Source: an uncultured Planctomycetaceae bacterium
GTDB taxonomy: Bacteria; Planctomycetota; UBA8742; UBA2392
Length of the DNA stretch: 64,000 bases
Direction of reading: 5' to 3'
NCBI GenBank assembly: GCA_964652605.1
Contig: CAZZBH010000003.1
Span: 7,800-71,799, forward strand
Part shown: piece by piece, positions 11,333-31,900 of the stretch
Layout: each line of letters starts with the position of its first letter
Position numbering within the stretch: the first letter of the stretch is position 1
Made by a program: the position numbers and the translations under genes
Notes under the pieces: generated by a model
The model's input: only the letters and a program-made list of their open reading frames with translations
Told to the model about the DNA's origin: nothing
The model's database searches: none

Positions 11333-11333
11333 G

Positions 11334-13423: not shown

Positions 13424-13428
13424 TCGCG

Positions 13429-13719
13429 TTATTCAACCGACTGCTTGTCTTCAGGCGGCAGCTCCTGGTCTTTCGGAAGTAGCCCCAGAGCGCCCATGGC
13501 GTGGAAGGTCAGGTAGCCGCAGCGCGCGCAGGCCACGGTCACGCTGGGCACCAGGTTGCGGACACCTTCGTCCGCAAGCTGATCGACCATGCCGAACACG
13601 GCATAGCCGTCCACCAGGCTGAACTGGTCACTGCCGCAGCGCGGGCAGGGCCGGGTCACGCCGCGTTCCTGCAGTCGCTTGACGATCATCTGGCGGTGGT
13701 CGGCGTTCCAGGTGCTCAT
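13429..13719 (-). CDS. small zinc-ribbon protein
   Basis: 96 aa with CPRCG...CARCG pairs. Lies 44 nt downstream of the kinase gene on the same strand. Confidence 0.5.
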   Translation of the reverse strand: MSTWNADHRQMIVKRLQERGVTRPCPRCGSDQFSLVDGYAVFGMVDQLADEGVRNLVPSVTVACARCGYLTFHAMGALGLLPKDQELPPEDKQSVE

Positions 13720-13762
13720 GCCGCGAGACTACACAAGAGTGTCCCGACCTCAAGCACGGGCA

Positions 13763-15256
13763 CTAGCCCAGCAGGTTGCGGTCTCGTTCAATCAGCACGC
13801 TTCCGCCGGCGATGCTGGCTGGGCCCTTGGGATAGTTGTTGTGCGGGACAGGATTGGACTTGCTGCCCGCCTCCTGCCTGGCGATGACATTGTAAATGGG
13901 GCTGCGCTTGCGGTCCTTAACCATTTCAAGGCCTTGCTCGGTGAACAGGTTGCGTGAGATGCGACGCTGCAGCGCGACCTTGCCTTCGTCGTTGCGCAGG
14001 AATGTCAGCTGGCGCAGCTCGTCCTGGCTGGCGTCCATGAAGTCGGTTTCAAAGATGCGCAGATAGCTTGCCATGCTGTTGTTTGTGGGCCCGAAGCCCT
14101 GTGCGTACAAGTGGCGCTTCTCAAGCTCCATCAACACTTCGATCATGCGCTGCCAGCGCAGGCCCACATCGTACTCGAGCATCTTCATGACAATGTCGGA
14201 CACTTTCGGCGGCACGTCGTGGCAAACCTCGTGCGGGGGAACGATCGGGCGCGACTGGGCCTGCTTGACCCAGCGCACGTTTTCGTCCCAGCTTCCGCGC
14301 GTAAGCGGCTTGAAAAGGTTGATGCCGGTCAGCAACTCATAGGCGACAACGCCCAGGCTGAAAATGTCGGCGCGTGCGTCCACCTTGTCGCGTGCCAGTT
14401 GCTCGGGTGCCATGTAGTGCACCTTGCCCGCAAATTCTTCGGCGGCAAACGAAAGTGGCGCGGCGATGCCGAAATCAGCCAGTTTGGCGACGCCCTCGGT
14501 GCTGATCAGAATATTGCCCGGGGTGACATCCTTGTGGACGATCCACTGGTGCGCGTAGGCCAGCGCGCGCGCAATGCGGCTGATGATGAACATGGCGATG
14601 GGGATCGGCACCAGCAGGTGCAGCTTGAAGTGGTGGCGCATCAGCATCGCCATATCGACGCCGTCCACATAATCCATGCTCATGAACGTCACGCGCGGCC
14701 CGTCGTCGATCACACGGGTTGCCTTGGGGTTGGGCATGCGTGCGGGTGCAAACCCGGGTGTGCGCTTGCCGCCCTTGCGGGGGTCCATGCGCCGCATCGA
14801 AAACGTGGCGAGTTGCAGGTCGCTGGTCGGTTTGGGAAGGCTCTTGACCAGGAAACCCTTGCGGAACTCTTCAGGCATCTCGGAAAGCTTCACACTCTCC
14901 AAGCCGTAAGTCTTGACGATGTTTTCGTGACGCAGGAAGGTGGCGATGTTGGCCTCGTTGCGGAGACGGGCCTCCTGCTCTTCGTCCAGCGTTCGCAGTG
15001 CCTTGAAGACAACATAGTCAAGCACGCCGCCGCAGTTCTTCTCCACCAGGTACACGATGCCCATCCCGCCGCGGCCAAGCTCCTCCACGATGGTATAGGT
15101 CGCTGAACTTCCGAAGGTGAAACCCCTGAGCGAAGCTTCTTCCAAGACTGGACTCCTGCGTCGTGCAATATGCCCGACTGCCCAGTATCGCACATAAAGT
15201 CCGGCAACGCCAATGTTTACGCCATTCACAATGCACTGATTGCACATTTCTGCCAT
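13763..15256 (-). CDS. serine/threonine protein kinase (Hanks-type) with uncharacterised C-terminal domain
   Basis: GRGGMGIVYLV (Gly loop), HKDVTPGNILIS (catalytic loop), LADFGIA (DFG), YMAPEQ (APE). Confidence 0.85.
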   Translation of the reverse strand: MAEMCNQCIVNGVNIGVAGLYVRYWAVGHIARRRSPVLEEASLRGFTFGSSATYTIVEELGRGGMGIVYLVEKNCGGVLDYVVFKALRTLDEEQEARLRNEANIATFLRHENIVKTYGLESVKLSEMPEEFRKGFLVKSLPKPTSDLQLATFSMRRMDPRKGGKRTPGFAPARMPNPKATRVIDDGPRVTFMSMDYVDGVDMAMLMRHHFKLHLLVPIPIAMFIISRIARALAYAHQWIVHKDVTPGNILISTEGVAKLADFGIAAPLSFAAEEFAGKVHYMAPEQLARDKVDARADIFSLGVVAYELLTGINLFKPLTRGSWDENVRWVKQAQSRPIVPPHEVCHDVPPKVSDIVMKMLEYDVGLRWQRMIEVLMELEKRHLYAQGFGPTNNSMASYLRIFETDFMDASQDELRQLTFLRNDEGKVALQRRISRNLFTEQGLEMVKDRKRSPIYNVIARQEAGSKSNPVPHNNYPKGPASIAGGSVLIERDRNLLG

Positions 15257-15280
15257 CGCTGGCGAGGCGTGAGTGACTCA

Positions 15281-16723
<1,443 letters not shown>

Positions 16724-16730
16724 TACGCCC

Positions 16731-17546
16731 ATGGCAGACTTTTCGGTGATCATAGTGGCGGGGGGCAGCGGCACCCGCATCGGCGGCAAGACGAAGAAGG
16801 CGTTGATCGAGGTCGCGGGGGCGCCGCTGGTGGTCCACACCGCCCGCGCCTTCATGGGGTTTGAGGATGTGGGCGAGGTAATCGTCGCCCTGCCGCCGGA
16901 CATCATGGCGCAGGTTGCCGGCAACCATACCAACGTCGCCCTGGCCGACTTGCCGGAAACTACGCCGAACCCCGTGCTCGGCCTGCGTGCAGTGGGTGCG
17001 ACGCGGATTGTAGCCGGCGGGGCCCGCAGACAGGACAGCGTGCTGAATGCGCTTCGCGCTTGCGACGCCCGCCTGCCCTACGTGATGATCCACGACGCGG
17101 CGCGGCCGTTTGTCAGCCTGGACGACCTGATTTCGCTGGTGGCGGAAACCCGGCAGTCCGGCGCGGCGATTCTTGCGCACCCGGTGCGCGACACCCTCAA
17201 GCGCGTGCAAGGCGAGCTGATCCAGGCAACCGTGGACCGAGACGGCTTGTGGGCGGCGCAGACGCCACAGGCCTTCCGGCGAGATGATCTGGTCAGGGCA
17301 TTCGAGCAGCACAACGGCACTGACGTGACAGACGATGCCGCCATGGCCGCGCTTGCCGGCATGCGTTGTGCCGTAGTGAAAGGCGGCGCGGCAAACTTCA
17401 AGATCACGACGCCCGAAGATCTTGAGCTGGCTGAGGCGCTGCTTGCCATGCGCGCGGCTCAAAGCGGCGACATACGCCCCGCCAGCGCGCTGTTCCGCAA
17501 GATCCACGGCGGAGAAACCATGATCGACGTAAAACCACGCAAATGA
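16731..17546 (+). CDS. ispD: 2-C-methyl-D-erythritol 4-phosphate cytidylyltransferase
   Basis: FSVIIVAGGSGTRIGG..KKALIEVAGAPLV, HDAARPFV, DDAAMAALAG. ATG at 16731. Confidence 0.9.
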   Translation: MADFSVIIVAGGSGTRIGGKTKKALIEVAGAPLVVHTARAFMGFEDVGEVIVALPPDIMAQVAGNHTNVALADLPETTPNPVLGLRAVGATRIVAGGARRQDSVLNALRACDARLPYVMIHDAARPFVSLDDLISLVAETRQSGAAILAHPVRDTLKRVQGELIQATVDRDGLWAAQTPQAFRRDDLVRAFEQHNGTDVTDDAAMAALAGMRCAVVKGGAANFKITTPEDLELAEALLAMRAAQSGDIRPASALFRKIHGGETMIDVKPRK

Positions 17547-17735
17547 GTGTGCAGGCCGTGCAATGAGTCTGCAGTTGACCCACGACCCAAAACCCAAGAC
17601 CCAAGACCAAAGACCGGGCACCCAGCATCCCCCGTACCGCCCCATTGACCGCGCCGGCTTGCCTGCTACCCTCCCGCCGTCAATTTTGCACGCCTGCGGC
17701 GGTTGATACTGCCCTGAGCGCAAGTGGAGAAACAG

Positions 17736-18002
17736 ATGATCACGCAGCAACGCCGCAATGACCTTCTCAAGGAGTATGGCCGCGGCGAAAACGACTCAGG
17801 ATCGGTGGAAGTGCAGGTTGCGCTCCTCACCGAGGAAATCAACAACCTCACCGTACACCTGAAGATTCACAAGAAAGACCACAGCAGCCGTCGCGGGTTG
17901 CTGCGGATGGTCGGCAAGCGCAGCGCATTGCTCAAGTACCTTGACCGCAAGGACGAGCAGCGTTACCGCGACCTGATCGGCAAACTGGGTATTCGCAAGT
18001 AA
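17736..18002 (+). CDS. rpsO: 30S ribosomal protein S15
   Basis: [47 protein letters not shown] lies 6-10 nt upstream of ATG 17736. Confidence 0.95.
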
Positions 18003-18005
18003 CCA

Positions 18006-18035
18006 GGGCGGGCCATGTGGCCCGCCTGCTTGCTT
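18006..18035 (+). terminator. stem-loop after rpsO (attenuator/terminator candidate)
   Basis: gggcgggcc-atgt-ggcccgcct gives an 8-9 bp GC stem with a 4-nt loop, followed by the T-containing tract gcttgctt. Confidence 0.5.
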
Positions 18036-18085
18036 ACCCGGAGAAGTGCAGGGGGTTCGGGACCCTGTCACGCCCGCGCGGACAC

Positions 18086-18118
18086 AGAGGCGTGTGCTTG
18101 GATCAAGCACAGACCTCT
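18086..18118 (+). promoter_or_regulatory. long imperfect hairpin in the rpsO-pnp leader
   Basis: agagg-cg-tgtgcttg / gat / caagcaca-ga-cctct: 8 bp plus 5 bp stems with a 2x2 internal loop. It sits in the 220-nt leader upstream of pnp ATG 18223. Confidence 0.4.
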
Positions 18119-18222
18119 CTGCCCGCCCGGGCAAATACCCGGCCCTTTGCATTCTTAAAGTGAGGCCCCTCCAGACAGGGAGAGCGGCCGGTAGCCCCGT
18201 TGCAGGGGCGGAAGGTCTTATC

Positions 18223-20451
18223 ATGGCAGTAACCAAGCTCAGTCAGAACAAGCACACAGTGACCGTCGAAATCGGCGGCCGCAACATTACCTTCGAAACC
18301 GGATGGCTTGCCAAGCAGGCCGCGGGCTCGGTGCTCGTGCGTGAAGAAAACAGCGCCGTGTTCGTGGCGGTGACTACAGCCGCGCCACGGCCGGGTATCG
18401 ACTTCTTTCCGCTTACCGTCGAGTACAAGGAAAAGACCAGCGCGGCTGGCAAGTTTCCCGGCGGGTTCTTTAAGCGCGAAGGCCGTCCGAGCACCAAAGA
18501 AGTGCTCACCATGCGCATGACAGACCGCCCGCTGCGTCCCACGTTCCGTGAAGGCTACCGGGATGAAGTGCAGATCAACGGCATGGCCATGTCCGCTGAC
18601 CCGAACCTTGACCCAGACATGCTGATGATCAACGGCGGCAGCGCGGCAGTGATGCTTGCAGGCTTGCCCTTTGATGGCCCCGTCGGTGCCGTACGAATGG
18701 GCCGGCGCGACGGCAAGTTCGTCGTCAACCCGGACTATGAAACCGTCGATCACGGTGACCTTAACATGGTCGTTGCCGGCACCGTCAACGGCATCTCGAT
18801 GGTGGAAGCCGGCGCGCACGAGCTGTCTGAGGACGATATCGTCGAAGCGCTCGATCTCGCGCACAAAGCCATCATCAAGCTGTGCAACGCCCAGCTCGAG
18901 CTGGTCAAGAAGGCCGGCATCAAGCCGATGGACTTCACACCGCCTGAAGCCCCGCCGGCCAAGCTGGTGGATGAAGTCAAGAAGAAGTACTTCGGCCAGT
19001 TTCTTGAAAAGGTCCGCATCACGGCCAAGCATGAGCGCAGCAACGCGCTCAGCGAGATCAAAAAGGCCGCAATTGCCGAGTACACGCCGGCTGACGCGTC
19101 TGACACGGCCGCTGTTGAGCGCGCAAAGCAGGTCGCGCAGATCGTTGGCGACTTCAAATACGAAGCTACCCGCCACATCATCCTGACCGAGAACAAGCGC
19201 ATCGACGGCCGCAACCTCGACGAGGTGCGCGACATCATCATTGAGATGTCGCCGTTTCCGCGCAATCACGGCAGCGTGACGTTCACCCGCGGCGAGACCC
19301 AGGCCTTCGTCACCTGCACACTGGGCACCGCGCAGGACACCCAGCTGGTGGACGGCTTGCGAGAATCCCGCGAGGAGCGCTTTCTTCTGCACTACAATTT
19401 CCCGCCGTTCTGCACCGGCGAGGCCAAGCCGATCCGCGGTGTCTCGCGCCGCGAGCTCGGCCACGGCGCGCTGGCAGAGCGCAGCATTCGCGTGATGCTT
19501 CCCAGCGAGACCGAGTTCCCGTACACCATCCGTATCGTCAGCGACATCCTGGAAAGTAACGGCAGTTCAAGCATGGCCAGTGTCTGCGGCGCCACCCTGG
19601 CGGCCTTCGACGCGGGCGTGCCGCTGAAGAAGCCCGTCGCGGGCGTGGCCATGGGCCTTGTCAGCGAAGGCGACAAGAACGCTGTGCTCACCGACATCCT
19701 CGGCGACGAAGACCACGTCGGTGACATGGACTTCAAGGTCTGTGGCACAGCCGACGGCATTACCGCCCTGCAGATGGACATCAAGGTCAAGAACCTGACC
19801 AGCGAGCTTATGCGCAAGGCGCTGGGCCAGGCGCGCGACGCGCGGCTCCACATCCTGGGCAAGATGGCGGAAGTGCTGCCGGCCCCGCGGCCAGAGATCA
19901 GCAAATGGGCGCCGCGCTTTGAGGTGATCAAGATCAGCAGTGAGTTGATCGGCTCAGTGATCGGCCCCGGCGGCAAGGTGATCCGCGGCATGCAGGACGA
20001 GTTCAAGACCACCATCACCGTCGAAGAGGACGGCACCATCAAGATCTTCGGCGAGGACGGCGTGAAGGTGCTCGCGAACAAAGAGCGCATCCGCATGATG
20101 ACCGAAGTGCCCGAGGTAGGCCAGCGCTTCACGGGCAAGGTGGGCAGCATGCGCGAGTTTGGCGCCTTCATCGAGTTCAACGGCAAGGAAGCCCTGATCC
20201 ACGTAAGCGAGCTGAGCGACGGCTATGTCGAAAAGCCGGAAGACGTGGTGAAGGTAGGCGACGAGCTTGAGTTCGAGATCATCAACGTCGATCCCACCGG
20301 CAAGATCAAAGGCAGCCGCAAGGCGGTAATCCTCAAGGACCGCGGCGAAGAATACTCGGCGCCAAAGCCGCGAACCGGCGGGCGCGACCGGGGCGGCCGA
20401 CCCGGAGGCCGCGACAGAGGCCCAAGACGCGAACGCTCCCCCCGCGGGTAG
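18223..20451 (+). CDS. pnp: polyribonucleotide nucleotidyltransferase (PNPase) with Arg/Gly-rich C-terminal tail
   Basis: Start at MAVTKLSQNKHTVTVEIGGRNITFETG (ATG 18223). Two RNase PH domains, then KH (GPGGKVIRGMQ) and S1 (GKVGSMREFGAFIEF) domains. Tail is GGRDRGGRPGGRDRGPRRERSPRG. Confidence 0.95.
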   Translation: MAVTKLSQNKHTVTVEIGGRNITFETGWLAKQAAGSVLVREENSAVFVAVTTAAPRPGIDFFPLTVEYKEKTSAAGKFPGGFFKREGRPSTKEVLTMRMTDRPLRPTFREGYRDEVQINGMAMSADPNLDPDMLMINGGSAAVMLAGLPFDGPVGAVRMGRRDGKFVVNPDYETVDHGDLNMVVAGTVNGISMVEAGAHELSEDDIVEALDLAHKAIIKLCNAQLELVKKAGIKPMDFTPPEAPPAKLVDEVKKKYFGQFLEKVRITAKHERSNALSEIKKAAIAEYTPADASDTAAVERAKQVAQIVGDFKYEATRHIILTENKRIDGRNLDEVRDIIIEMSPFPRNHGSVTFTRGETQAFVTCTLGTAQDTQLVDGLRESREERFLLHYNFPPFCTGEAKPIRGVSRRELGHGALAERSIRVMLPSETEFPYTIRIVSDILESNGSSSMASVCGATLAAFDAGVPLKKPVAGVAMGLVSEGDKNAVLTDILGDEDHVGDMDFKVCGTADGITALQMDIKVKNLTSELMRKALGQARDARLHILGKMAEVLPAPRPEISKWAPRFEVIKISSELIGSVIGPGGKVIRGMQDEFKTTITVEEDGTIKIFGEDGVKVLANKERIRMMTEVPEVGQRFTGKVGSMREFGAFIEFNGKEALIHVSELSDGYVEKPEDVVKVGDELEFEIINVDPTGKIKGSRKAVILKDRGEEYSAPKPRTGGRDRGGRPGGRDRGPRRERSPRG

Positions 20452-20508
20452 GACAGCCCGGCGTGTAAACGTCGGGCCTGGGGCTTATGCAGGTTCAATT
20501 CACAGCAC

Positions 20509-20550
20509 GAAAACATCGAAGGAGCCAACGCTCCTTCGATGTTTTCTTTT
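20509..20550 (+). terminator. rho-independent terminator of pnp
   Basis: Perfect 17-bp stem gaaaacatcgaaggagc / caac / gctccttcgatgttttc, followed by tttt. Confidence 0.85.
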
Positions 20551-20712
20551 GGCTGCGCTGAGCCGGTGCTGGACACACTCCCCCGACATGACCGAATGGC
20601 GGCGTGTCAGCAACTTTCGCAGCGTGTGACTGAAATGTGACACAAGTATGGGCGGGCGATGACATTCACGGAATAGATTGCCTTTCGGTAATTGCTAACG
20701 CGAGAGCGGGCC

Positions 20713-21624
20713 ATGGCGTTCACTAATGCCAATCTGTTGATGAATCACCCGACCGCGCGGTGGTTGATTGAGAAAGATCCGACCATCCTGCAGATTGCCC
20801 GCGTCATGCCATTCCTCGGCATTGACGGGGATTCGATCAGGTACGCGCGCCGCACCACCGAATTGACCAACGCCGCGATTGTCAACGACGGCGCGGCGGC
20901 AATCGACAATTCCGGCGCGGCCGAGGACATCGAATTCGGATTGAACGAGTTCATCTCGACCTACAAGATCAAGGTCGCCGACCTGGACCGCTACGACAGG
21001 TCGGACGCGGCCCAATACGCCCTGGCGCTGCGCGCTGACTTGTACGGCTACTTCGCATGGCTGGACACTGTCCTGCCCAGCCTCGGTATCCAGACGAATT
21101 TGAGCAGCGCGCCACTGACGCTCGACACGATGGACGCCGCCTATCACGAGGTCCGCGCCAATGACGGCCGTCCGACGATTATCATGACTTCTACGCGCAT
21201 TCTTCTCTGGTACAACAAACTGTGCCGCGCCACGAACTACGAGCCGCCGATGGTGCCATGGCAGTGGTATGATCCGGCGGTGGGGCAGATGGTGTCTGGC
21301 TTCGCGCCGGCGTTCAACGGAACGCCGATCTTGATCAACGACAAACTGGCAAGCGGGAGTTCCGAAACCGCCGAGGATCAGCGCATCTACTTCATGGTAC
21401 TCGGCGACGACGGCAAAGCCGGCCCCACACGCGGCGTGACAGGCATCGTGCCGGAGAGGCTGAAGGGCACCATGTTCGTGAAACGGACGACCATGGGCGA
21501 TTGGTCAAGTGGGGTGGAGGAGCCGAACACCATCGCAACCACATGGGTAAGCTGGCCAGTCGGGATAGCGGTTGGCGCGGAGCGGGCACTAAGCGTCCTG
21601 ACCAACTTCAGCGCGCCGGAATAG
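20713..21624 (+). CDS. HK97-fold major-capsid / encapsulin-like shell protein (orphan)
   Basis: 303 aa from ATG 20713. Segment order resembles HK97-type capsids: SIRYARRTTELTNAAIVNDGAAAIDNSG...ISTYKIKVADLDR (compare HK97 gp5 ALEYVREEVFTNNADVVAEKALKPES, recalled from memory), TIIMTSTRILLWYNKL, FNGTPILINDKL (compare MWGLPVVPTKA), RIYFMVLGDD. No HMM was run. Confidence 0.45.
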   Translation: MAFTNANLLMNHPTARWLIEKDPTILQIARVMPFLGIDGDSIRYARRTTELTNAAIVNDGAAAIDNSGAAEDIEFGLNEFISTYKIKVADLDRYDRSDAAQYALALRADLYGYFAWLDTVLPSLGIQTNLSSAPLTLDTMDAAYHEVRANDGRPTIIMTSTRILLWYNKLCRATNYEPPMVPWQWYDPAVGQMVSGFAPAFNGTPILINDKLASGSSETAEDQRIYFMVLGDDGKAGPTRGVTGIVPERLKGTMFVKRTTMGDWSSGVEEPNTIATTWVSWPVGIAVGAERALSVLTNFSAPE

Positions 21625-21739
21625 AAAGCAGGAGACGGAGAAGGGAACAAGAGCCCGGAGCGCCAGCGACGGGAAGAGCGACAAGGCAACAAGGGATGTT
21701 CGGGAAGGCGCAAGCAAGCGCCCAACGCAAGGAGCCGCC
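21625..21739 (+). promoter_or_regulatory. purine-rich, GGA-dense intercistronic spacer
   Basis: The 115-nt spacer is overwhelmingly A/G on the coding strand and holds 7 GGA triplets. The last one lies in the AAGGAG Shine-Dalgarno sequence 6-7 nt before ATG 21740. Confidence 0.25.
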
Positions 21740-21952
21740 ATGGCCTGCGGATGCGGAGGACAGAAAATCGTAGTACCGCAAAGCACAGCCGCCAACGGGC
21801 CGCCGCTGGACTTTTCCACTATGCCCCGGGTCAGCCAATCAAAGGCCGACCCGGCAGTGGCGGCAACCAACAACGCGCGCGCGAAAACAGGCGCTCGCCG
21901 GCCTTGCACGTACCTCGCAAACACCTGGGCGCCCATCCCCGGCGCGTGTTGA
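21740..21952 (+). CDS. small Cys-bearing protein (70 aa), unknown
   Basis: AAGGAG SD upstream. Sequence MACGCGG...RRPCTYLANTWAPIPGAC has four Cys, at the extreme N- and C-termini. An alternative overlapping frame exists (21751..21969), so the call is tentative. Confidence 0.4.
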   Translation: MACGCGGQKIVVPQSTAANGPPLDFSTMPRVSQSKADPAVAATNNARAKTGARRPCTYLANTWAPIPGAC

Positions 21953-21972
21953 GCGCAACAGAGGACTGAACC

Positions 21973-22587
21973 ATGGTCGCAGGCTATCCCGGAACTCCAG
22001 TACCAGCGTACACCCACCCCGGCGCGTGGTGCGGTGTGCTGGCCGGCGATCCGTGCCGCGTCGTCTGCTATGCGGGCGAACGGGGTGAGTCTGCTCCGGC
22101 GGGAACCAAGTGGGTGTTTGGCGCGACCCCGGGCTATCACACCCTCGGCCCACCCGACAACTTTGCGCAATTGGTGGGTTCTTTTCCCTGCCCTCCGCAG
22201 TGCTGTGGAGTAGCGGGAGGCGGTCAACCGCCCTCCGGACCGCCGGTGGATGAGCCCGTTGTTCCGGAGGAAGGCGAGGACATCCCGACCAGCGATTATC
22301 CCGTGGACGACCCGGTACAAGGTCCAGGGCCTGGCCCATTGCCGCCGGGGCCGATCCCGCTGCCCGACCCGTTTCCGGAGCCTGTGCCGCCTCAGGGTGG
22401 CGGCGAGTATTCGGACTTTCCGTTCGCCAGCCTCGACCCGTGGGACTGGCCGGGCGGAAGCGGGCACGGGTCGCCAGGCGGACAGGAACCCATGCCAGCA
22501 AGCGGCGCGGGCGCGGTCTTTCTGCCGGACGTAACACCCACGGACACAGACCGGCTTGGCGAAGGCGCGCTTTCTCCACAAGGGTAA
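21973..22587 (+). CDS. Cys-cluster N-domain plus proline/acidic-rich disordered protein (204 aa)
   Basis: GAGGA lies 8 nt upstream of the ATG. N-half has WCGVLAGDPCRVVCYAG...FPCPPQCCG. C-half is PPSGPPVDEPVVPEEGEDIPTSDYPVDDPVQGPGPGPLPPGPIPLPDPFPEPVPPQ. Confidence 0.45.
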   Translation: MVAGYPGTPVPAYTHPGAWCGVLAGDPCRVVCYAGERGESAPAGTKWVFGATPGYHTLGPPDNFAQLVGSFPCPPQCCGVAGGGQPPSGPPVDEPVVPEEGEDIPTSDYPVDDPVQGPGPGPLPPGPIPLPDPFPEPVPPQGGGEYSDFPFASLDPWDWPGGSGHGSPGGQEPMPASGAGAVFLPDVTPTDTDRLGEGALSPQG

Positions 22588-22597
22588 CGGAACCGCA

Positions 22598-24229
22598 ATG
22601 GCGAACCCGAACTGCCAATGCCAACTGATCGTCTGGGGTCCGGCAGCCGACCTGAAGTTTGAGCCCGACATCGATCCCGGAGAGCCCCAGAAGCTGGTTC
22701 GCGCGTCGTTCCGCGAAATCTTTGTAGCCGTTGGTGGCGCACAGCAGTACAACGGCAGAATCACGTTGGTTCCCAAAGGGAATCAACCCTCGCCACCAGG
22801 TCGGTGGTCACTCGAAACACTGAGCCGAATGGGTCAAGCCAAACCCCTCCTTGAGTTCCGCGAGATCGATGTCTTGCCAATGTTCACGGGGAAAGCCCCA
22901 GTAATGGGTCCTTGGAACACCACGCTGATCGGCCCGGAAACCACTTGCGATACCTACCATCGTTTCCAGTTCCGCGCACCCCAAAATATTGAGCCAAACC
23001 ATCCCGACGACCCCTTCGACTTCTACCGGATCCGCCTCAAATGGCCTCACGACGTACCTGATCGCGACGCGGCAATTTGCATCGTAAGCGCCAAAGTGCT
23101 GCGCATGCGCGAGTCGCTGCCCGATGAGGATGAAGGGATAATCATTGTAGGCGTTGAAGATGAGGATGAGCGACGGAAGCGCAGGACGACATTTCTAAAC
23201 ATGGTAAATCCCGGTGGGGGTCTCGACAACTTGCCAATCGCCGGATTCATCAACGATGGGTTCGATCCAGATTGTGCGTATCAGAAACTGAACCAAGCCC
23301 AGAAGGACAAGCTCCACGTGCTGCATAAGGCGGGCTGGAGATTCGCCACCAAGGACGACGGTTCTACTTCCTACGGTGGCCTTGATATGGGCGGCAGAGA
23401 TGTCAGCAACATTGACGTCGAGATTGAGGATTCAGATTGGTCCGAACGGATGGCAAGCGGTGAAGATGTTCAATGGATCGACGACCGGTGGGGCGTCGAT
23501 TTCGACAACAAGATGCTCTACATCGACGCCGGAGACTGCGATACGGGAGCTACCATAGTTGGCGAGTTGCTAAAGAAGATGAAGGAGCCTGTGGCGGGAG
23601 GCATTGATAAGACGGACTTTCATGCTGGTATGGACAAATGGGCGCAGTTTGGCGGCGGCTTGGGAGACATCCAAGACCTGCTAAGCGCTGGCATCGTTGA
23701 CCAGAGGCGATGGAGTCAAGTTGGCTATCTAAACAAGGAAAAAATTCTGGGTGCATTGCAGAGCGGCATAGTAGAAGTTGCGGGTAGTTTTGTGCTGACA
23801 GCAGGATTTGGTGCGCTCGGACAAGTATTGAAGCTTTTCAAAATTGCAAAGGCCATGCGATCAATGCGTGGAGTCCTTGCTGGCAAAAGACTTGATGCTG
23901 GGCTATTTGCTCAAAAGACGTTCTCGCCGACCTTTGCTGAAAAGGGACTGCTACAGGGTGCAAAATTTGACGATGTAGTCAAAGCACTAAAAAATGGTAA
24001 TCTGAAAGTGGATGCCATGGGAATAGATTACATTACTAAAGCTGGGAGAACTTATATTGTGAACACCAGGTCAGCCATGGCCCTGCAGCGAGCTGGTATT
24101 AGCAGATCACAATGGAAAGTGTTGAATCGAACCGGAATGAAAGTGTATGAGGACAGGGTTGCCGCGCAGCTAGCGAGGAATGGTATGAAATGGGGAGACG
24201 GGGTAGCGGACCCTGCAATGGCGAAATGA
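22598..24229 (+). CDS. large modular protein with low-GC C-terminal cassette (polymorphic-toxin-like architecture)
   Basis: 543 aa from ATG 22598, 11 nt after the preceding stop. Contains a hydrophobic segment GIVEVAGSFVLTAGFGALGQVL. The C-terminal ~120 aa (GIDYITKAGRTYIVNTRSAMALQRAGISRSQWKVLNRTG) is encoded by DNA of about 38% G+C (45/120 at 23941-24060). Confidence 0.5.
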   Translation: MANPNCQCQLIVWGPAADLKFEPDIDPGEPQKLVRASFREIFVAVGGAQQYNGRITLVPKGNQPSPPGRWSLETLSRMGQAKPLLEFREIDVLPMFTGKAPVMGPWNTTLIGPETTCDTYHRFQFRAPQNIEPNHPDDPFDFYRIRLKWPHDVPDRDAAICIVSAKVLRMRESLPDEDEGIIIVGVEDEDERRKRRTTFLNMVNPGGGLDNLPIAGFINDGFDPDCAYQKLNQAQKDKLHVLHKAGWRFATKDDGSTSYGGLDMGGRDVSNIDVEIEDSDWSERMASGEDVQWIDDRWGVDFDNKMLYIDAGDCDTGATIVGELLKKMKEPVAGGIDKTDFHAGMDKWAQFGGGLGDIQDLLSAGIVDQRRWSQVGYLNKEKILGALQSGIVEVAGSFVLTAGFGALGQVLKLFKIAKAMRSMRGVLAGKRLDAGLFAQKTFSPTFAEKGLLQGAKFDDVVKALKNGNLKVDAMGIDYITKAGRTYIVNTRSAMALQRAGISRSQWKVLNRTGMKVYEDRVAAQLARNGMKWGDGVADPAMAK

Positions 24230-24753
24230 TCTACGTACTCAATGGTCGAGAGCGATTGCTACTTCGGTCGGATGTGCCTCAACCGCTGGAGGGAGCACCA
24301 CACCCGCTATTTATTTCGGACGAGAGGAGATTATTTCTTGCATATTTTGCTGAGGACGACGATGTTTCAATTGTTAATGATGGAGCGGTGAGTGAACCGC
24401 GCCTTGTCGAGCCGAACTCTGTTGACGATTTGGTTGCTGTCTGCGTGATGGAGTACTACTCCATGCATGCGGCACCGTTCGACTGGGAATCCCTTGCTGG
24501 ACATCCGCTTAGGGACAAGGGCCTCAACGTTTGCAACGTTTTTGAACTTCAGGCATCGAGTTGGATTGCCGACGTCGCACCACCTGACAAGGGCCTGCTG
24601 AACCCCCGCAAGTTTGAGCGCTGGAAGCATGTGATGTTTGTGTTCAATGATTCTATAATCGATATTATCGGGAGGAATCTTAGCTTCCAGGCTTCTAGAA
24701 CTGGTTCTAGGGAGGCAGTATTGCGCGAATTCTTCCGGAGTCGCAGTAGTTGA
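24226..24753 (+). CDS. immunity-like protein, translationally coupled to the preceding gene
   Basis: ATGA start/stop overlap at 24226-24229. 175 aa with G+C about 43% (26/60 at 24301-24360). Motif block GHPLRDKGLNVCNVFELQASSWIADV...FERWKHVMFVFNDSIIDIIG. Confidence 0.5.
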   Translation: MIYVLNGRERLLLRSDVPQPLEGAPHPLFISDERRLFLAYFAEDDDVSIVNDGAVSEPRLVEPNSVDDLVAVCVMEYYSMHAAPFDWESLAGHPLRDKGLNVCNVFELQASSWIADVAPPDKGLLNPRKFERWKHVMFVFNDSIIDIIGRNLSFQASRTGSREAVLREFFRSRSS

Positions 24754-24793: not shown

Positions 24794-25366
24794 GTGGTAG
24801 ATGCCTTTGGAGATTGTCCGGGCGGCACTTCTGCGGGCGTAGCCGCTGGCGGATTCGGTGGTTTCGGTTGCAACGGAAACGGAGGGCGCGGCGGGGACGC
24901 GACGGCAAGCGCCGCGCCGGAGATGACTGAGTCGATAGATCCGAAGGACTTTCCTGTCGAGTATTTGACCAGCAAGTTTGCCTTCGGCGGGGGCGGTGGC
25001 TACGGCATCGTCAAGGACACAAGTGCGCCGGATGGGCAGGGGGGTACGGGCGGCGACGCGATCATCCGCTTTGGTGCGCCCAGTACTACGCTGGATACTC
25101 GACACCGGCGCGCGATTGGAGGGTATGGAGGATTCGGCACGAACGCGGGAGGAGTTGGCGGTAGCGCCATCTGGGAACCCGAGAAGTACGGCGTTGACGC
25201 TCGCGGGAACGGGGGGCCGGGTGGCCAGAACAGCGTTCCGGGTGCAGTGCCAACTCACGGCACGCGGACGCCAGCGGCAGCCGCAAACGCCACACTAGTC
25301 AACCCGCCTATCCCCCAAGGTGGCGTCCCGGCTTGGAACGTGAATCAAAAGTACAGGTGTAGCTGA
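24794..25366 (+). CDS. glycine-rich protein (possible fragment)
   Basis: GTG start with no SD. Motifs GGFGGFGCNGNGGRGGD, FGGGGGYG, GQGGTGGDAIIRFG, GGYGGFGTNAGGVGGSAI. This composition is reminiscent of glycine-rich phage tail-fibre-type proteins. Start is uncertain. Confidence 0.35.
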   Translation: MVDAFGDCPGGTSAGVAAGGFGGFGCNGNGGRGGDATASAAPEMTESIDPKDFPVEYLTSKFAFGGGGGYGIVKDTSAPDGQGGTGGDAIIRFGAPSTTLDTRHRRAIGGYGGFGTNAGGVGGSAIWEPEKYGVDARGNGGPGGQNSVPGAVPTHGTRTPAAAANATLVNPPIPQGGVPAWNVNQKYRCS

Positions 25367-26877
25367 TGTTATCAAGGACGCGCATAGCACTTGTCCTGGC
25401 GGTGTTCATGATAAGTCTCGGTGTGGGAGGCGGCTTACTAATTAGACACAGATCGGTCCATGACTCCAATCAACCGAAGTCACTTCCACTGCGACTTTCA
25501 CAAGGGTCTTCAAGCAACGGCGAGGGCGACATTCAGTCGTCCGGGTCGCGCAGCAATGCAAGTAGTGAGGCTGACGCAGCGGCAATGCCGCCTCTGACCA
25601 ACTACCTCAGAATCAAATGCTTTCCGGAGCATGCGACGCGATCCGGCTTTTCAGTAGCACTAGCAGACGACCTGACGGTGACCGCGTCTGACGGCACCAG
25701 CAACTTGCGTTTATCGCAGCTTTTCGAGGCACCCGTTGCGTTGGTTGTGAAGGACCCACTTCCTGAACGAGTGGCGTTTCAATTGTGGCACGACATGGTT
25801 GACGAAGTGGTCTATTCCGGGCAGGCTGCCGCGCGAGAGGAGGGACTGTGCCGGTATTGGGATATTGTGATTCCTGCGGTCGCGGCAAGTATTACGATTG
25901 ATTTACCGGACGTTGAGGGGACAGTAGAAATAGGCTTTTATGGTTCTCCGAAATGGCGCGACGGCAACTACCCTTTTGGCGGCGAGATTGCATGCAGAGT
26001 GGAGAGGTGTACTACTATGACCGCTTGGTTGTTGCCGTGGACATACTGGTTAGGTGGCAACGACCTCGACGTCAAATGGCCGGACCCACCCTCTGACAGG
26101 CCGTCATACCTAGAAACGCAGTTTGAGTTCGATTCTGACTCAGTCGACTTGCGATTCGGCAGGTACGTGAGAATAGGGCTCACCATAACGCGGGTTGAAA
26201 CGTGGCGGCCAATCAACACGCTTGGGAGGAGAGTGACCGCTGCGTATGTGCGCGATGGTATTGGGCACGGCTCGGTTATCCCCTATGAGGACGATGGTCC
26301 CCATGAGATTAGCCTTGAGCAGGTTAGTCGGCCAAGCGATAATGAACGGTACGAGGGTAGGCGAGTATTGTATCACCAATCAGGTGATTGGGCAGTCACT
26401 GTGTCGGGAGATGTGTGGTTTCGTGAGCCAGAGTCGTGGCATACACCCTCCATCGCTGTACTTGAATTTGAAGATGGCGGGTTTTCCATCGTTCGCCGAA
26501 CGGAGCCGCTTGGCGAGGATGTCACGGAGCTGGTTGTTCCCGGAACGCCGGGGGATGGCGGCACCGTGGAGTTTAAAGTCTCCGCGCCGGATCACGCGGA
26601 GGGCCTGTCGCTGGAGTGCCATGTCCGGCTCCCGCAATGGGAGGCCGACGAGATTTTCTATTACATCAAAGATGTGGCGTTGCCGTCCAATGGCACTTCT
26701 ACAATCCGGATACCCTACGGGGCTGAGCTATGGATTACGGAGTTCAACTTCTCAAAGGAAGCCAACCTTGAGGTTGTTGAACCGAAGAGAGACGCCCGCA
26801 GGCGAAGTTCACGTTGGAGACAACCTTTTCGAGCGGGCGACACCGCAACCATCAAACTTGCAGATCGGAACGGCTAA
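25366..26877 (+). CDS. N-terminally membrane-anchored beta-rich protein, unknown
   Basis: TGATG stop/start overlap at 25364-25368. TM anchor IALVLAVFMISLGVGGGLLI. 503 aa with G+C about 48% in the sampled line 25921-25980. Confidence 0.55.
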   Translation: MLSRTRIALVLAVFMISLGVGGGLLIRHRSVHDSNQPKSLPLRLSQGSSSNGEGDIQSSGSRSNASSEADAAAMPPLTNYLRIKCFPEHATRSGFSVALADDLTVTASDGTSNLRLSQLFEAPVALVVKDPLPERVAFQLWHDMVDEVVYSGQAAAREEGLCRYWDIVIPAVAASITIDLPDVEGTVEIGFYGSPKWRDGNYPFGGEIACRVERCTTMTAWLLPWTYWLGGNDLDVKWPDPPSDRPSYLETQFEFDSDSVDLRFGRYVRIGLTITRVETWRPINTLGRRVTAAYVRDGIGHGSVIPYEDDGPHEISLEQVSRPSDNERYEGRRVLYHQSGDWAVTVSGDVWFREPESWHTPSIAVLEFEDGGFSIVRRTEPLGEDVTELVVPGTPGDGGTVEFKVSAPDHAEGLSLECHVRLPQWEADEIFYYIKDVALPSNGTSTIRIPYGAELWITEFNFSKEANLEVVEPKRDARRRSSRWRQPFRAGDTATIKLADRNG

Positions 26878-28774: not shown

Positions 28775-28990
28775 GCGTGCACGCTACGTAACTTGTTTTA
28801 TCAACAGTGTTTCCGCAAAATATACGGACTTGACTGCCACGCCCTTGCTACGACAATCACACGACCACTTGTGGAGCGATTGGTGATCCAGCGTGTGCGA
28901 TATGTGCAATCATTTGACGCAACGTATTGCAAGAGGTACGGTTAGAAACCGCGGAGCCCGCGGCGCTAAAGGCTTTTGACGGAGGCACCG

Positions 28991-31900
28991 ATGAGGCAAA
29001 TGCTCGCCGCCGTAGTGGCGACAATTCTGGCGGGTTCAGTCTCGGCGCAGACAACCTTCGTCTCTACACCCAATCAGCCGATCCCCGACAATTCGCCCAA
29101 CGGCGTCACGAACACGATTGTCATTCCGCCCACGTCCGACCGCATCCGGTCATTGCGTGTCGGAGTGCGCATCCAGCACACATACACCGCAGACCTTGAT
29201 ATCTGGCTGATCCCGCCCGGCGTGACCTGGAGCGGGCCGTACACCACAATCAATAACGGGCCGGTGGTGGAGGCGCCCCCCGGCGTGATCCAGCTTTCCA
29301 CCAACAACGGCTCCTCTGGCGACAATTACGGCAGCACGACCAACTCGTCGGTTTACGCGAACTTCAGTTCACCCAGCGACACGACGTGGCCGGCTGCGCA
29401 ATCGGTGACTAACGGGAATGCCCCGTTCACGTCGCAGTCGCAGTGGATTCCGGAATGGCGGGGCGCGTGGGACACGATGTACGGGCGCGACCCTTCCGGC
29501 GCGTGGACGCTGGCTGTCGGTGACGGATGGGCGCTCGATACCGGCACCCTGCTGGCATGGCGGATCGAGTACATGCCCGTCACACCGCCGTCACTGATCG
29601 TGCGCCAGGGAGAGGCCAACCGCCCCGGCACGCCGGCTGTTCCGGGCCAGGCCGGCCAGGTGCTGGGCCAGGCCCGCATTGAGGCAGTCGGCAACAATGC
29701 CATTTCGGGCGTGACGGTGACGGCGCAGAACGGCGTGAACATCGGTACGAGCCTTTCGCAACTGGCGCTGTATGCGGACACAAACGAAGACGGGCTGCTT
29801 GATCCGGGTGACACCTTTCTTCTGGCAGCGTCCTTGTCGGGCAGCACCGCGACGTTCAACTTCGGGGCGTCGGTGCCGCTGACATCGGGCACGACCGCGG
29901 CGTTGCTTCTCGTTGGCGACGTGCGGCCATCGCCGGCTGCTACGGGCTTGACGCTGCAGATCACGAATGCCGGCGCAATCGGCGGTGCGACGGGGGTGTT
30001 CGGGGTTTTTCCGGTGGTGTTTGGATTTCATCCGTTTGCGAGCTTGCGCACCTACACCAGCGTGCCGCCTGGCGGCAGGCAAATTCCGAACAACCAGGCG
30101 TATGGCGTGCGGGACTCGATTCAGATCCCGCCATTGAACGAGCGCGCGGCAAGCATCCGTGTCGGCGTGCGAATCCAGCACGACCGGCTTCAGGACATTG
30201 ACATGTATCTGCTGCCGCCGGGCGTGGACTGGAGCGGGCCCTATACCGGCTCCGGACCAGCCGGAGTGATTGAACTGAGCTCCGACAATGGCGGCAACGG
30301 CGACAACTACGGGACGGGCAACGGGCCGTTCGTGTTCACGTTATTCTGCAGCCAGACAGACCCGAATCTTGCCTGGCGCGCCAACCGCAACATCATCACT
30401 TCAAATCAGAATGAAGCACCGTTCACGCACCGTCCCGCCTACTACCCCGAAGACCAGAGCGATTTCAACGCGCTGTACAATGCGGATCCTTCGGGCCAGT
30501 GGACACTGGTTGTTCTGGATGATGCAGGCCAGAACAACGGCGGCGAGTTGATCGGTTGGCAGATCGAGTATCTGGCTCACCCGATTGCCACGCTGGCTGG
30601 CAACGCGGACCTTGGATCGGCGACCGTAGGATTCCCCAGCGGGGTGTCACCGCGCACTTTCACGATCGGCAACGACGGGGACTATCCGCTGGCGGTATCG
30701 GGCATCACGTTTGTCGGCGCGCACGCGGCGGATTTCAGCCGCAACGCGATATCGTTTCCGGTGAACGTCGCGCCCGGTGGCAGCTTCAACTTTAACGTGA
30801 CCTTCACGCCGACGGCTGATGGCGTGCGGCATACAACGCTTCGCGTGCTGTCGAACGAGAACGGCATCCCGGGCACCGCGGACGACATAACGATCTGGGG
30901 CTTTGGCGAAATGCCGGACCAGTTGCTGATCAATCCAGGGTTCAACAATCATCCGGGAGAGAGTTTCAAACACGCCGAAACCAACGCGGTCTTCGGGCAG
31001 TACGAGTTCGCCACTGGGGCCTCAGCGGTGACGGTGAACAGCGTGACGATCCGCGAGGAGTCAAACCTTGCGTTGGCCGCCAACCTGTCCAACCTGCGCC
31101 TGTATCACGACACCGACAACGACGGCGAGCACGGCCCGGGCGACGTGTTACTGGGCATCGCGGCGCTGGGGCCTACAGACGGGTTCGCTACGTTCAATGT
31201 GGGCCGCGTGATCGGTGCGCAGACCTTTGAGAATTGGATTGTTGTCGGCGACGTGCTTGCCACACCCGTCAACCAGCTGCTTGCGCTTGAGATTCGCGCC
31301 GCGACGGACGTAGTTGCCTCGCACACTCCGGCTGTGCTGTTCCCGGTATCAACGGGCCCGCGCACGCTGGATTCACAACGCGTGTTTACCAACACGCATC
31401 CCGGTGGCCTCTTGATCCCGAACAGCAGCACTGTCGGCGTGACCAGCAGCATCGTGATCCCGCCGACGACTGAGACAATCGCAGCGTTTCGCGTCGGTGT
31501 GCGCATCGATCACCCCGTGGATGAAGACATCGAGATGTGGCTGATCCCCCCCGGCGTGACGTGGAACGGACCATACTCCGGCAGCGGGCCAGCCGGGGTG
31601 ATCGAGCTGTCGAGCGACAACGGCGGCTCCGGCCAGGACTATGGCAGCGGCGCGTTTGACTTCGTGTATGCCAACTTCACGTCGGCGACTGACCAGGTTT
31701 TCACGCCGTCGGTGAACATTGCCGGGCAGGGCACCAGTGCCGCGCCGTTCACGAGCACGTACTACCGCCCCGAAGATCAAACCGACTTCAACGCGCGCTA
31801 TGGGCAAAGCCCGTCCGGCACCTGGACGCTGGCGGTGCGCGACGACGCCGGAAACCAGTTTACGACCGGCCGCCTGATTTCATGGCAGATCGAGTACAGG

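Follow-up and report, generated by a model that had tools for sequence, protein, structure and literature searches.

The locus lies in a 64-kb window (the whole stretch of DNA analysed) and consists of two coupled genes placed within a series of genes read from the same strand (Table 1). The first open reading frame (P543; 22598-24229, plus strand, 543 amino acids) and the second (P175; plus strand, 175 amino acids) stand where the initial annotation had placed them. Direct reading of the junction (...GCG AAA TGA / ATG ATC TAC...) bears out the ATGA overlap at 24226-24229 by which that annotation had described the two genes as fused. The toxin gene probably starts at TTG 22556 instead of 22598, giving a product of 557 amino acids (P557), because homology to the related protein P0004 begins at that residue. 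For the downstream gene, the NCBI call uses an ATG at 24190 (187 amino acids), whereas the alignment with the homologue of P175 begins at the ATGA start. Searches of Pfam, NCBIfam, PADLOC and PHROGs returned nothing for P543, P175, P204, P190 and P503, and no homologues of P190 or P503 were found in L008, L009 and L016, three loci used for comparison. Around the toxin locus there was no tRNA, no integration-site (att-like) repeat and no significant excess of promoter or terminator signals, the pnp terminator excepted. Within the 64 kb there is no second copy of the tip, of P175 or of the N-terminal domain (N-domain).

Table 1. Features of the toxin locus and its neighbours (positions in the window)
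Feature	Position	Strand	Remarks
Capsid-like (HK97-type major-head-like) gene	20692..21624	+	phrog_212 match; start probably ATG 20713
Small Cys-rich protein, 70 aa, MACGCGG...PGAC	21740..21952	+	Counterparts at the same position in L009 and L016
Pro-rich acidic P204	21973..22587	+	Counterpart in L009; 3' end overlaps toxin start by 32 nt
Toxin gene, N-terminal carrier domain (~170-190 aa, C-x-C-Q-L motif)	22556..23125	+	Homologous N-termini in P0004, P0055 and the 691-aa protein of L016
Toxin gene, acidic middle domain (P557 residues 217-357)	23204..23626	+	Counterpart in P0005
Toxin gene, Gly/Ala-rich hydrophobic linker (P557 358-443)	23627..23884	+	Trunk/tip junction zone
Putative C-terminal toxin tip, ParB/Srx-like, Tox-ParBL1 type (P543 430-543)	23885..24229	+	HMMER family, AF2, Foldseek
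P175, probable cognate immunity protein	24226..24753	+	ATGA overlap; homologue behind orphan tip
Gly-rich P190	24794..25366	+	Same strand; membership of the system uncertain
Membrane-anchored P503	25366..26877	+	Same strand, 55% G+C, N-terminal hydrophobic helix; membership of the system uncertain

By exact count the window contains 63.2% G+C, a lower value than the 65-70% or so that had been supposed for the genome. The tip and P175 (23867-24753, 887 bp) reach 49.6%, about 4 SD below the window mean (SD 3.5%). Of all 887-bp windows, 0.6% are this poor in G+C, every one of them overlapping this spot, and the window-wide minimum (48.7%) starts at 23823. The drop pointed out in the initial annotation is therefore real and the lowest in the window, but its depth had been overstated, since 38-43% is found in no sub-window longer than 200 bp. 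Codons 1-423 of P543 have 54.5% G+C, codons 424-543 have 47.9% (41.7% in the lowest 40-codon block, 441-480) and P175 has 50.6%. The fall begins within the Gly/Ala-rich linker and is also seen at third codon positions, where GC3 is 0.82 in pnp, 0.80 in the capsid-like gene, 0.62 in the N-terminal part of P543, 0.43 in the tip and 0.53 in P175. This drop over the tip and P175 is the strongest compositional anomaly of the window.

A word-indexed search with P543 retrieved the protein itself alone, and the relatives of its C-terminal tip surfaced only through an exhaustive HMMER search, which gave 793 of them at E ≤ 1e-3 and 364 at E ≤ 1e-10. Nearly all of the 793 match only the residues from about 385 or 430 to 531 of P543, and for 146 of 151 matched stretches no more than 33 residues separate the end of the match from the C-terminus of its carrier, the carriers being 83 to 2303 amino acids long. 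Domains recognised on these carriers are RHS repeats (nine), RHS core (five), PT-HINT (two), PAAR, prePAAR, T7SS_signal and PT-TG. These matches support the reading of the tip as a putative toxin domain shared among hundreds of proteins with unrelated N-termini, in agreement with its original description as an exchanged module. When 50 tips were scanned against Pfam at E ≤ 10, no real family and no link to the ParB families emerged, nor any ParBL1 model, and PDB sequence searches with P543, P175 and the profiles of tip and capsid yielded chance-level matches only. Among 50 family members, T75 and R76 are invariant, while N74 and S77 reach a conservation of 90% or more (the window has LNTRS / VNTRS). 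In the consensus A-Q-K-T-F-S, where the conserved N-terminal Ser/Thr of Tox-ParBL1 might be sought, only Q and F are invariant, the T and S positions being less than 90% conserved. The window tip keeps all the invariant residues of the family (Q, F, T-R, A, R, W).

The AF2 model of the tip is confident (pLDDT 89.4, pTM 0.80). Among the PDB structures found with it by Foldseek, the top 13 are ParB CTPase domains, Noc or sulfiredoxin (E 0.036-0.8, probability ≤ 0.89), and the named top matches in BFVD are mostly ParB/Srx proteins. The scores are weak across both libraries (best E 0.03, TM 0.3-0.47), and with them a ParB/sulfiredoxin-like fold of the modelled tip is tentatively suggested. The loose resemblance to a ParB/sulfiredoxin core that had been proposed from the sequence thus returns, weakly, in two libraries, and it fits the published Tox-ParB and Tox-ParBL1 classes. 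Tox-ParBL1 is a computationally defined class, with NGK_2271 of N. gonorrhoeae as its seed, that has a predicted ParB fold and a motif [NT][RT][RT] and is found on RHS, HINT, T6SS and T7SS toxins; the motif Arg is equivalent to that of ParB DGHHR, the last two motif residues are mostly Arg, and the domain is paired with Imm-SUKH and Imm44 (Zhang et al., 2012, PMC3482391). Like Tox-ParBL1 and Tox-ParB, the tip is a short alpha+beta domain at the C-terminus of RHS, HINT, T6SS and T7SS carriers, and its N-T-R fits the [NT][RT][RT] type of motif, as far as the published pattern goes. On the other hand, the tip family has T-R followed by Ser in place of mostly Arg at the last two positions, its partner proteins are neither Imm-SUKH nor Imm44, and the window tip has no classical DGHHR motif of the Tox-ParB kind. 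The tip most likely belongs to Tox-ParBL1 or is sister to it, a likeness drawn through the published motif and the structure searches. The literature searched yielded neither experiments on Tox-ParBL1-type domains nor a later publication about ParBL1 toxins; candidate activities are those of a nuclease or of an NTP-dependent phosphotransferase or NTPase.

The remaining part of the protein is made of domains that recur in other combinations. Residues 1-430 of P543 have no match in Pfam, NCBIfam or PHROGs and, as remarked at the outset, the Pfam search finds no PAAR, LXG, RHS or MuF domain in the protein itself. The N-domain is 38-42% identical to that of P0004, is homologous to the N-terminus of P0055 (where it is present in two to three tandem copies and the C-terminus has an HExxH motif) and also opens the 691-aa protein of L016. 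All three of these proteins have unrelated C-termini, which is the C-terminal polymorphism that had been predicted for such a locus. In addition, L016 carries two tandem genes that are 85% identical over 236 amino acids and then unrelated. The middle domain (pI 4.3) is 44-46% identical to residues 299-438 of P0005, a protein whose N-terminus and C-terminal tip both differ from those of the window protein. No signal peptide, transmembrane or N-terminal hydrophobic helix or known trafficking domain was found in the toxin protein, and its secretion is therefore assumed.

A search for orphan copies of the tip and its downstream gene, suggested by the initial annotation, is answered by a related Planctomycetaceae MAG (GCA_964571035.1). 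This genome carries a 5'-truncated cassette of both (L001-L004), in which homology spans from P543 residue 426 (nt 23873) to the end of P175, the tip part corresponding to residues 426-541. The nucleotide identity with the window is 67.5% and the amino acid identity 64-68%. Upstream of the orphan there are a stop codon and a divergent Y1 transposase. The ATGA overlap is kept in both genomes, and the cassette is of low G+C in the MAG as well (52-55% vs 62-69% in the flanks). Between the two copies of the tip, pN is 0.22 against a pS of 0.84. The main toxin locus of the same MAG has a different C-terminus, with a 532-aa LRR gene downstream, and a capsid-like gene whose product is 82% identical to that of the window. 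The start of the orphan homology and the matches to RHS-type carriers, which begin variously between P543 residues 342 and 435, locate the trunk/tip breakpoint that was to be sought in alignments of homologues. This comparison shows that the tip and the downstream gene behave as one exchangeable low-GC cassette of about 870 bp, joined to the trunk at the linker. With 38% identity between the two genomes, the N-domain has diverged further than the cassette (64-68%), whereas the textbook arrangement is a conserved trunk with a variable tip. A type II toxin-antitoxin module, to which a stand-alone 69-aa ORF in L002 might point, was rejected because the homology continues upstream of the ATG of this ORF, marking it as a remnant; this reading is also disfavoured by the placement of the toxin domain at the C-terminus of a 557-aa protein and by the presence of its family on exported RHS and PAAR proteins.

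Upstream of the toxin gene, the capsid-like gene is a solitary one, flanked by pnp and recJ. Its product matches phrog_212 ('major head protein', E 4e-8), a family that the homologues in L016, L017 and L024 match as well. By tblastn it shares 23-30% identity with major head proteins from the phages PaMx28 and DoCa5. It has no Pfam match at E ≤ 1, no sequence or profile match in PDB and no relative in IMG/VR. Identity to the homologues is 82% in L009 and 37-41% in L016, and both homologues immediately precede toxin loci in which the N-domain of the window protein recurs; L016 also carries a tail-fibre-like gene. The possibility that the gene (dN/dS 0.10) is a prophage remnant was rejected, as three genomes conserve it under purifying selection. 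Of the small proteins next to it, the Cys-rich 70-aa protein is 50% identical to the product of a 73-aa gene at the same position in L009, and L016 has there an 80-aa protein with a GCGCGG motif. P204 (pI 4.05) is 59-63% identical in its C-terminal half to the product of the 202-aa gene of L009, where the overlap with the toxin gene is also present. The order 'capsid-like gene, low-GC variable gene, lipoprotein or LRR gene' was found in all seven other distinct metagenome loci with a readable downstream region, the variable gene opening with a related N-terminal 'PC.GC' motif. The variable genes downstream of the capsid homologues have no Pfam toxin domain, and the neighbours of the homologue in L017 have no PHROG matches, several of the long ORFs there being antisense artefacts. 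As judged from these comparisons, the new element is the N-terminal carrier domain, which three Planctomycetota genomes keep linked to a capsid-like gene that stands alone.

With all these elements, we consider it likely that the gene at 22556/22598-24229 codes for a polymorphic toxin with a ParB/Srx-like tip and a swappable cassette in which P175 is the probable antidote. The toxin would be built of an N-terminal carrier domain of about 190 amino acids, an acidic middle domain, the Gly/Ala-rich linker and a basic toxin domain of about 115 amino acids. The tip would be the killing module, probably acting on nucleic acid or nucleotides in the cytoplasm of the target cell by means of its conserved Arg-containing N-T-R-S loop, which may correspond to the GERR/DGHHR/GCHR phosphate-binding loop of ParB/Srx proteins. 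The acidic, translationally coupled P175 would bind and neutralise the tip inside the producing cell. The likeness to polymorphic toxins (Rhs, CdiA, MafB, LXG) comprises a C-terminal toxin domain common to unrelated trunks, one trunk with unrelated tips and tandem alternative C-termini (as in L016), a small coupled gene immediately downstream of the toxin gene, and an orphan cassette of tip and downstream gene beside a transposase (Zhang et al., 2012, PMC3482391). Unlike these systems, the window trunk has no RHS, FilH, PAAR, LXG, WXG or MuF domain and no signal peptide. To our knowledge, no delivery route for polymorphic toxins has been described in Planctomycetota lineages.

The capsid-like gene could bear on such a route. 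For MuF phage-head systems, the proposal is that a capsid-like particle takes up the toxin as its load (Zhang et al., 2012, PMC3482391; Jamet et al., 2017, PMC5576092). As in these systems, a polymorphic toxin seems to be encoded beside a phage-head-type gene; unlike them, no protein encoded in the 20.7-26.9 kb region matches MuF, terminase or portal, the context is not that of a prophage, and a lone capsid-like gene between pnp and recJ is conserved with the toxin locus in three genomes. Encapsulins offer another parallel, with a lone HK97-type capsid-like gene, no packaging genes and variable putative cargo genes alongside. The capsid-like protein differs from them in having no match by sequence to encapsulin Pfam models or solved encapsulins, in having phage major head proteins as its best matches and in the lack of an identified targeting peptide; we know of no encapsulin that delivers toxins. 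A speculative and rather unlikely extension is that the toxin is one payload of an undescribed, phage-derived delivery or containment system of Planctomycetota. Polymorphic effectors with the C-x-C-Q-L N-domain would there be packaged or exported, without MuF, portal or terminase, by an HK97-type capsid-like protein that stands alone and has been domesticated, together with small proteins rich in Cys (CGCGG / PC.GC) or in Pro and, in one genome, a tail-fibre-like protein.

Alternatively, the pair might be an intracellular conflict module (abortive infection, phage defence or addiction), in which the large protein would stay in the cell as a sensor-effector, the tip would be released on a trigger such as a phage or the capsid-like product, and P175 would be the antitoxin. 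In favour of this, the toxin protein lacks a signal peptide, a transmembrane helix and any known secretion domain, the phage-type capsid-like gene adjoins the locus and L016 adds a tail-fibre-like gene. Toxin domains are common to polymorphic toxins and defence systems, which also counts for this reading. ParB-fold domains are found in restriction-like systems as well (Zhang et al., 2012, PMC3482391). Nevertheless, PADLOC matches none of the cluster proteins, the tip family occurs on RHS, PAAR, PT-HINT and T7SS-signal proteins, which are exported weapons, and tandem alternative C-termini together with an orphan cassette are a signature of polymorphic toxins; an intracellular module is for these reasons unlikely.

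The role of P175 in the polymorphic toxin reading is also open to an alternative. Among 5.8 billion clustered proteins P175 has a single homologue (68% identity), and the mention in the initial annotation of similar motif blocks in small proteins is not borne out; a scan of genome collections likewise returned one MAG only. This sole homologue follows the orphan tip, and the two overlap by ATGA as in the window. P175 has no match to known immunity families, including the Imm families of Pfam, and its structure prediction gave no usable model (pLDDT 34). Other tip carriers also have a small gene directly downstream, 2 nt away or overlapped through ATGA, and these partner genes form a family of about 131-140 amino acids. 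That P175 is a diverged member of it was not supported, since hhalign gave a probability of 8% over 21 columns and hmmsearch ranked it 80 and 27 against 2000 shuffles. Loci with other tips carry other downstream genes. P175 could then serve a true toxin domain in an accessory capacity, as chaperone, adaptor or co-effector, or its gene could be a passenger beside that domain, in line with P175 being unrelated to the partner family and to any Pfam Imm family, larger at 175 amino acids than those partners and devoid of a predicted fold. Against this, its position and ATGA coupling are conserved in both genomes, it accompanies the tip even where the latter is a truncated orphan, its sequence is strongly constrained by purifying selection (dN/dS 0.085), its charge is complementary to that of the tip (pI 5.1 vs 10.2, with no hydrophobic helix in P175), and there is no other candidate immunity gene adjacent. 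Moreover, several immunity families per toxin family are usual, as exemplified by Tox-ParBL1 with Imm-SUKH and Imm44 (Zhang et al., 2012, PMC3482391). A non-immunity role is accordingly improbable, and position, co-transfer, purifying selection and opposite charge make P175 a probable immunity protein. Finally, an ordinary gene pair, with a G+C dip due to amino acid composition or weak codon adaptation and no modular exchange, could draw on the broader low-GC region in which the dip lies (22.6-26.9 kb, 55.1% G+C, below the window average), but it is highly improbable, since the fall of GC3 from 0.80 to 0.43 cannot be accounted for by amino acid composition, the homology breakpoints coincide with the dip and the cassette sits in a different genomic context in another genome.

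The polymorphic toxin reading adds to this field in several ways. It provides a sequence-defined family of 793 members for a putative toxin domain missed by Pfam, NCBIfam and PDB sequence searches, and this family now has a confident AF2 model, with residues that are candidates for catalysis. The locus further contributes an immunity candidate and a carrier domain, both of them new. We know of no described contact-dependent weapon in Planctomycetota, and the locus points to the same cassette-swapping arms race in this phylum as in proteobacteria. If the linkage to the capsid-like gene is functional, it would point to a new delivery route for protein toxins and add a case of capsid domestication other than encapsulins and gene transfer agents.

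The toxin/immunity-type reading of this gene pair, put forward in the initial annotation, has been largely supported, and the finding is real: the C-terminal domain of the 543-aa protein P543 (the tip, ~residues 430–543) and the following gene, coding for the 175-aa P175, form a cassette of a known kind, a polymorphic-toxin tip with a partner gene. Both open reading frames were found where they had been placed, and the proposed ATGA overlap is present, these four bases (24226–24229) being common to the two genes. The toxin gene probably starts at a TTG codon at 22556 (557 aa), overlapping by 32 nt the end of the gene for P204, its Pro-rich acidic neighbour. The 14 extra residues are covered by homology to P0004 (a protein sharing trunk regions with P543) and to the fragment P0094, and the same overlap exists in L009, the main locus of the MAG GCA_964571035.1. 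Upstream lie rpsO and pnp, closed by a strong hairpin terminator at 20509–20546; the order after pnp is capsid-like gene, 70-aa ORF, P204, toxin, P175, P190 and P503, followed by recJ on the opposite strand. Neither tRNAs nor flanking repeats were found around the locus.

Coordinates of the capsid-like gene, the toxin gene pair and the ORFs between them
Feature	Position	Strand	Product	Match
Capsid-like gene	20692/20713–21624			phrog_212 'major head protein', E 4e-8
Cys-rich ORF	21740–21952		70 aa	
P204, Pro-rich acidic ORF	21973–22587		204 aa	
P543 gene	22598–24229	+	543 aa	
P175 gene	24226–24753	+	175 aa	

The drop in G+C content is real and non-random, although shallower than first claimed. 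Values of 38–43% are seen only in sub-windows of ≤200 bp, and the background, taken as ~65–70%, was computed as 63% (63.2% for the whole window). Codons 1–423 of P543 have 54.5% G+C, codons 424–543 have 47.9% (codons 441–480 being the lowest 40-codon block, 41.7%), and P175 has 50.6%. Third-position G+C follows the order pnp (0.82), capsid-like gene (0.80), N-part of P543 (0.62), P175 (0.53) and tip (0.43). The 887 bp at 23867–24753 (49.6%) lie ~4 SD under the mean for all windows of this length, and the one with least G+C in the whole 64 kb begins at 23823; the entire 22.6–26.9 kb region is also somewhat reduced (55%). Downstream of P175 on the same strand (24794–26877) are the Gly-rich 190-aa ORF (P190, with GGxGG repeats) and the 503-aa ORF (P503), which has an N-terminal membrane anchor and sits in low-GC DNA; neither gave a family match or a homologue in related loci. 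Just past recJ, a giant 2614-aa ORF (28976–36820) shows by eye repeated proprotein-convertase-P-like modules and, towards its C-terminus, apparent Kelch-like repeats.

The tip belongs to a large family. No match to P543 or P175 was obtained in curated libraries or PDB sequences, and a word-indexed protein search with P543 returned P543 alone; an exhaustive HMMER search gave 793 relatives at E ≤ 1e-3 (364 at E ≤ 1e-10), the match being confined in nearly all to P543 residues ~385/430–531. In 146 of 151 matched stretches it ends ≤33 residues from the C-terminus of carriers of 83–2303 aa. Among 145 carriers scanned against Pfam were examples with RHS repeats (9), RHS core (5), PT-HINT (2), PAAR, prePAAR, T7SS signal, PT-TG, DUF6443 and DUF6531, and Pfam has no family covering the tip domain itself. 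It is by a distribution of this kind that C-terminal domains of polymorphic toxins are defined. The tip family has the consensus A.FAQKTFS..FS..G.FAG.TVDDVA.ALRSG.L.P.DVPIDYIVRDGNTLILNTRSAQAL..AGIPRS.WN.VNRTG....E.RL.GQL.RN.L., and every invariant residue is retained in the window protein. The domain occurs, too, with 40% identity (E 2e-15), in OR848121.1 and OR846722.1, both of them unannotated 'Listeria phage' records, a hint that in Firmicutes it is also carried by phage or prophage DNA.

An AlphaFold2 model of the tip (50-sequence alignment; pLDDT 89.4, pTM 0.80) was compared by Foldseek with the PDB, and each of the top 13 matches was a ParB N-terminal CTPase domain, Noc or sulfiredoxin, with weak scores (E 0.036–0.8, probability up to 0.89, TM 0.27–0.47). 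In BFVD, named top matches were mostly 'ParB/Sulfiredoxin' or 'ParB-like nuclease' proteins, again with weak scores. Weak as the scores are, both libraries, which are independent, point to a ParB/Srx-like fold. Two ParB-fold toxin classes have been defined, and in one of them, Tox-ParBL1, a '[NT][RT][RT]' motif carries the Arg equivalent to that of ParB DGHHR; its carriers include RHS, FilH and HINT proteins, delivered via T2SS (MafB), T5SS, T6SS and T7SS (Zhang et al., 2012, PMC3482391). The N-T-R(-S) motif of the tip family, with T-R invariant and N and S in ≥90% of members, fits this pattern and, by motif alignment, would correspond to ParB GERR and Srx GCHR. The tip therefore likely belongs to Tox-ParBL1, a fit judged from the published motif, and its chemistry would be that of a nuclease, or of an NTP-dependent phosphotransferase or NTPase. 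The literature searched yielded no experimental work on this class.

The trunk of the protein is modular. Residues 1–193 (counted from TTG 22556; the N-domain) match the N-termini of P0004 (692 aa; 38–42% identity), of P0055 (859 aa, with two to three tandem N-domain copies and an HExxH C-terminus) and of a 691-aa protein of L016, a locus on a 4.1-Mb 'Planctomycetes bacterium' contig; the C-terminal regions of all three are unrelated. Residues 217–357 match P0005 (44–46%), in which both N-terminus and tip are different, and a Gly/Ala-rich hydrophobic linker (358–443) sits before the tip, as in RHS carriers. L016 itself (10001–20938) holds two tandem toxin genes, 85% identical over their first 236 aa and then unrelated; the one with the HExxH end is followed by a 219-aa gene and the other by a 633-aa LRR gene. 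Between them is a tail-fibre-like 644-aa gene (nine PHROG tail-fibre families, E down to 4e-14), whose 5' part is duplicated as a fragment at 20744–20938, a recombination or duplication scar.

The predicted pattern of trunk, exchangeable tip and orphan cassette was borne out in GCA_964571035.1 ('uncultured Planctomycetaceae bacterium'). L009 combines a capsid-like gene (82% identical) and genes for a Cys-rich (73 aa) and a Pro-rich (202 aa) protein with P0004; the C-terminus of P0004 is a different one, and the gene after it codes for a 532-aa LRR protein in place of a P175 homologue. Elsewhere in this MAG lies an orphan cassette, low-GC here too, whose homology runs from P543 residue 426 to the end of P175 (67.5% nucleotide identity over 868 nt; 64% and 68% aa) and keeps the ATGA overlap. 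Immediately before it come a stop codon and a gene for a Y1 transposase in divergent orientation, and after it an MreB-like gene. Its annotated 69-aa ORF is what is left of a longer frame, because homology extends upstream of its ATG. The Tyr codon of the D-Y-I-T-K motif is TAA in the MAG (L001, ~1558) and TAC in the three Logan assemblies (L002–L004), which come from related samples. The difference is due either to an assembly error or to a population polymorphism by which the orphan tip is inactivated. Sigma-70-like hexamers (TTGACG, 17 nt spacer, AAAAAT; 23967–23995) precede by ~20 nt the internal Met of P543 (24017), the counterpart of the first codon of the 69-aa ORF; such sites do not exceed the chance count in this region and the pair may mean nothing.

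P175 is a reasonably probable immunity protein for the tip. It lies directly downstream with conserved ATGA coupling, stays with the tip in the orphan cassette and evolves under strong purifying selection (pN 0.18, pS 0.72, dN/dS 0.085; tip pN 0.22, pS 0.84). With a pI of 5.1, P175 is a soluble acidic protein, whereas the tip is basic (pI 10.2), and behind other tip carriers, too, a small gene follows, either after 2 nt or with an ATGA overlap. Against this role, P175 matched no known Imm family, its AF2 model is unusable (pLDDT 34), and no relation could be demonstrated to the 131–140-aa partner family of other carriers. A search of 5.8 billion clustered proteins gave P175 a single homologue, P0003 (68% identity), found in the same MAG and the three Logan assemblies. 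A type II TA system was rejected for the pair: the tip ends a 557-aa protein, and its family is carried by exported RHS and PAAR proteins.

The capsid-like neighbour lies just upstream in all three N-domain loci found, in a block of lone capsid-like gene, small CGCGG-motif protein and Pro-rich acidic protein preceding the toxin (window 20692–22587, L009 968–2816, L016 7953–9432), whose chromosomal surroundings differ among the three. Its product shares 23–30% identity with phage major head proteins (PaMx28 and DoCa5) and is under purifying selection (dN/dS 0.10); an encapsulin was rejected by sequence, since neither Pfam (E ≤ 1) nor PDB sequence and profile searches gave a match. A scan with the capsid alignment found no relative in IMG/VR and 15 further loci in metagenomes (30–48% identity), eight of them with readable downstream sequence (seven distinct; two near-identical). 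In six of these eight (five distinct), the next gene has lower G+C, codes for a highly variable protein of 337–446 aa and opens with 'M..G.PC.GC', a motif reminiscent of the MACGCGG protein of the window. L018 has instead a 507-aa gene without the motif, and L028 a pair of short ORFs (91 and 98 aa). The third gene codes, except in L028, for a lipoprotein-like, membrane or LRR protein. The loci with a variable 337–507-aa gene (L017, L018, L021–L024 and L027) look like one family, in which variable effector/partner pairs are linked to a capsid-like gene. Because no known (Pfam) toxin domain, N-domain homologue or tip homologue was found in the metagenome loci, and no MuF, portal or terminase at any locus examined, the link between capsid-like gene and toxin is a suggestive synteny; a MuF-type toxin was rejected for the latter reason.

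In function and architecture, the locus probably corresponds to a polymorphic toxin–immunity system (Zhang et al., 2012, PMC3482391), the likely class of its tip being ParB/Srx (Tox-ParBL1-like). It differs from such systems in that no known trafficking domain, signal peptide or transmembrane helix was detected in the toxin protein. Further distinctions from known systems are the carrier domain, P175 as a family of two members and the conservation of the capsid-like neighbour. Its main interest lies in the predicted ParB-fold toxin chemistry and in a possible phage-derived delivery route in Planctomycetota.
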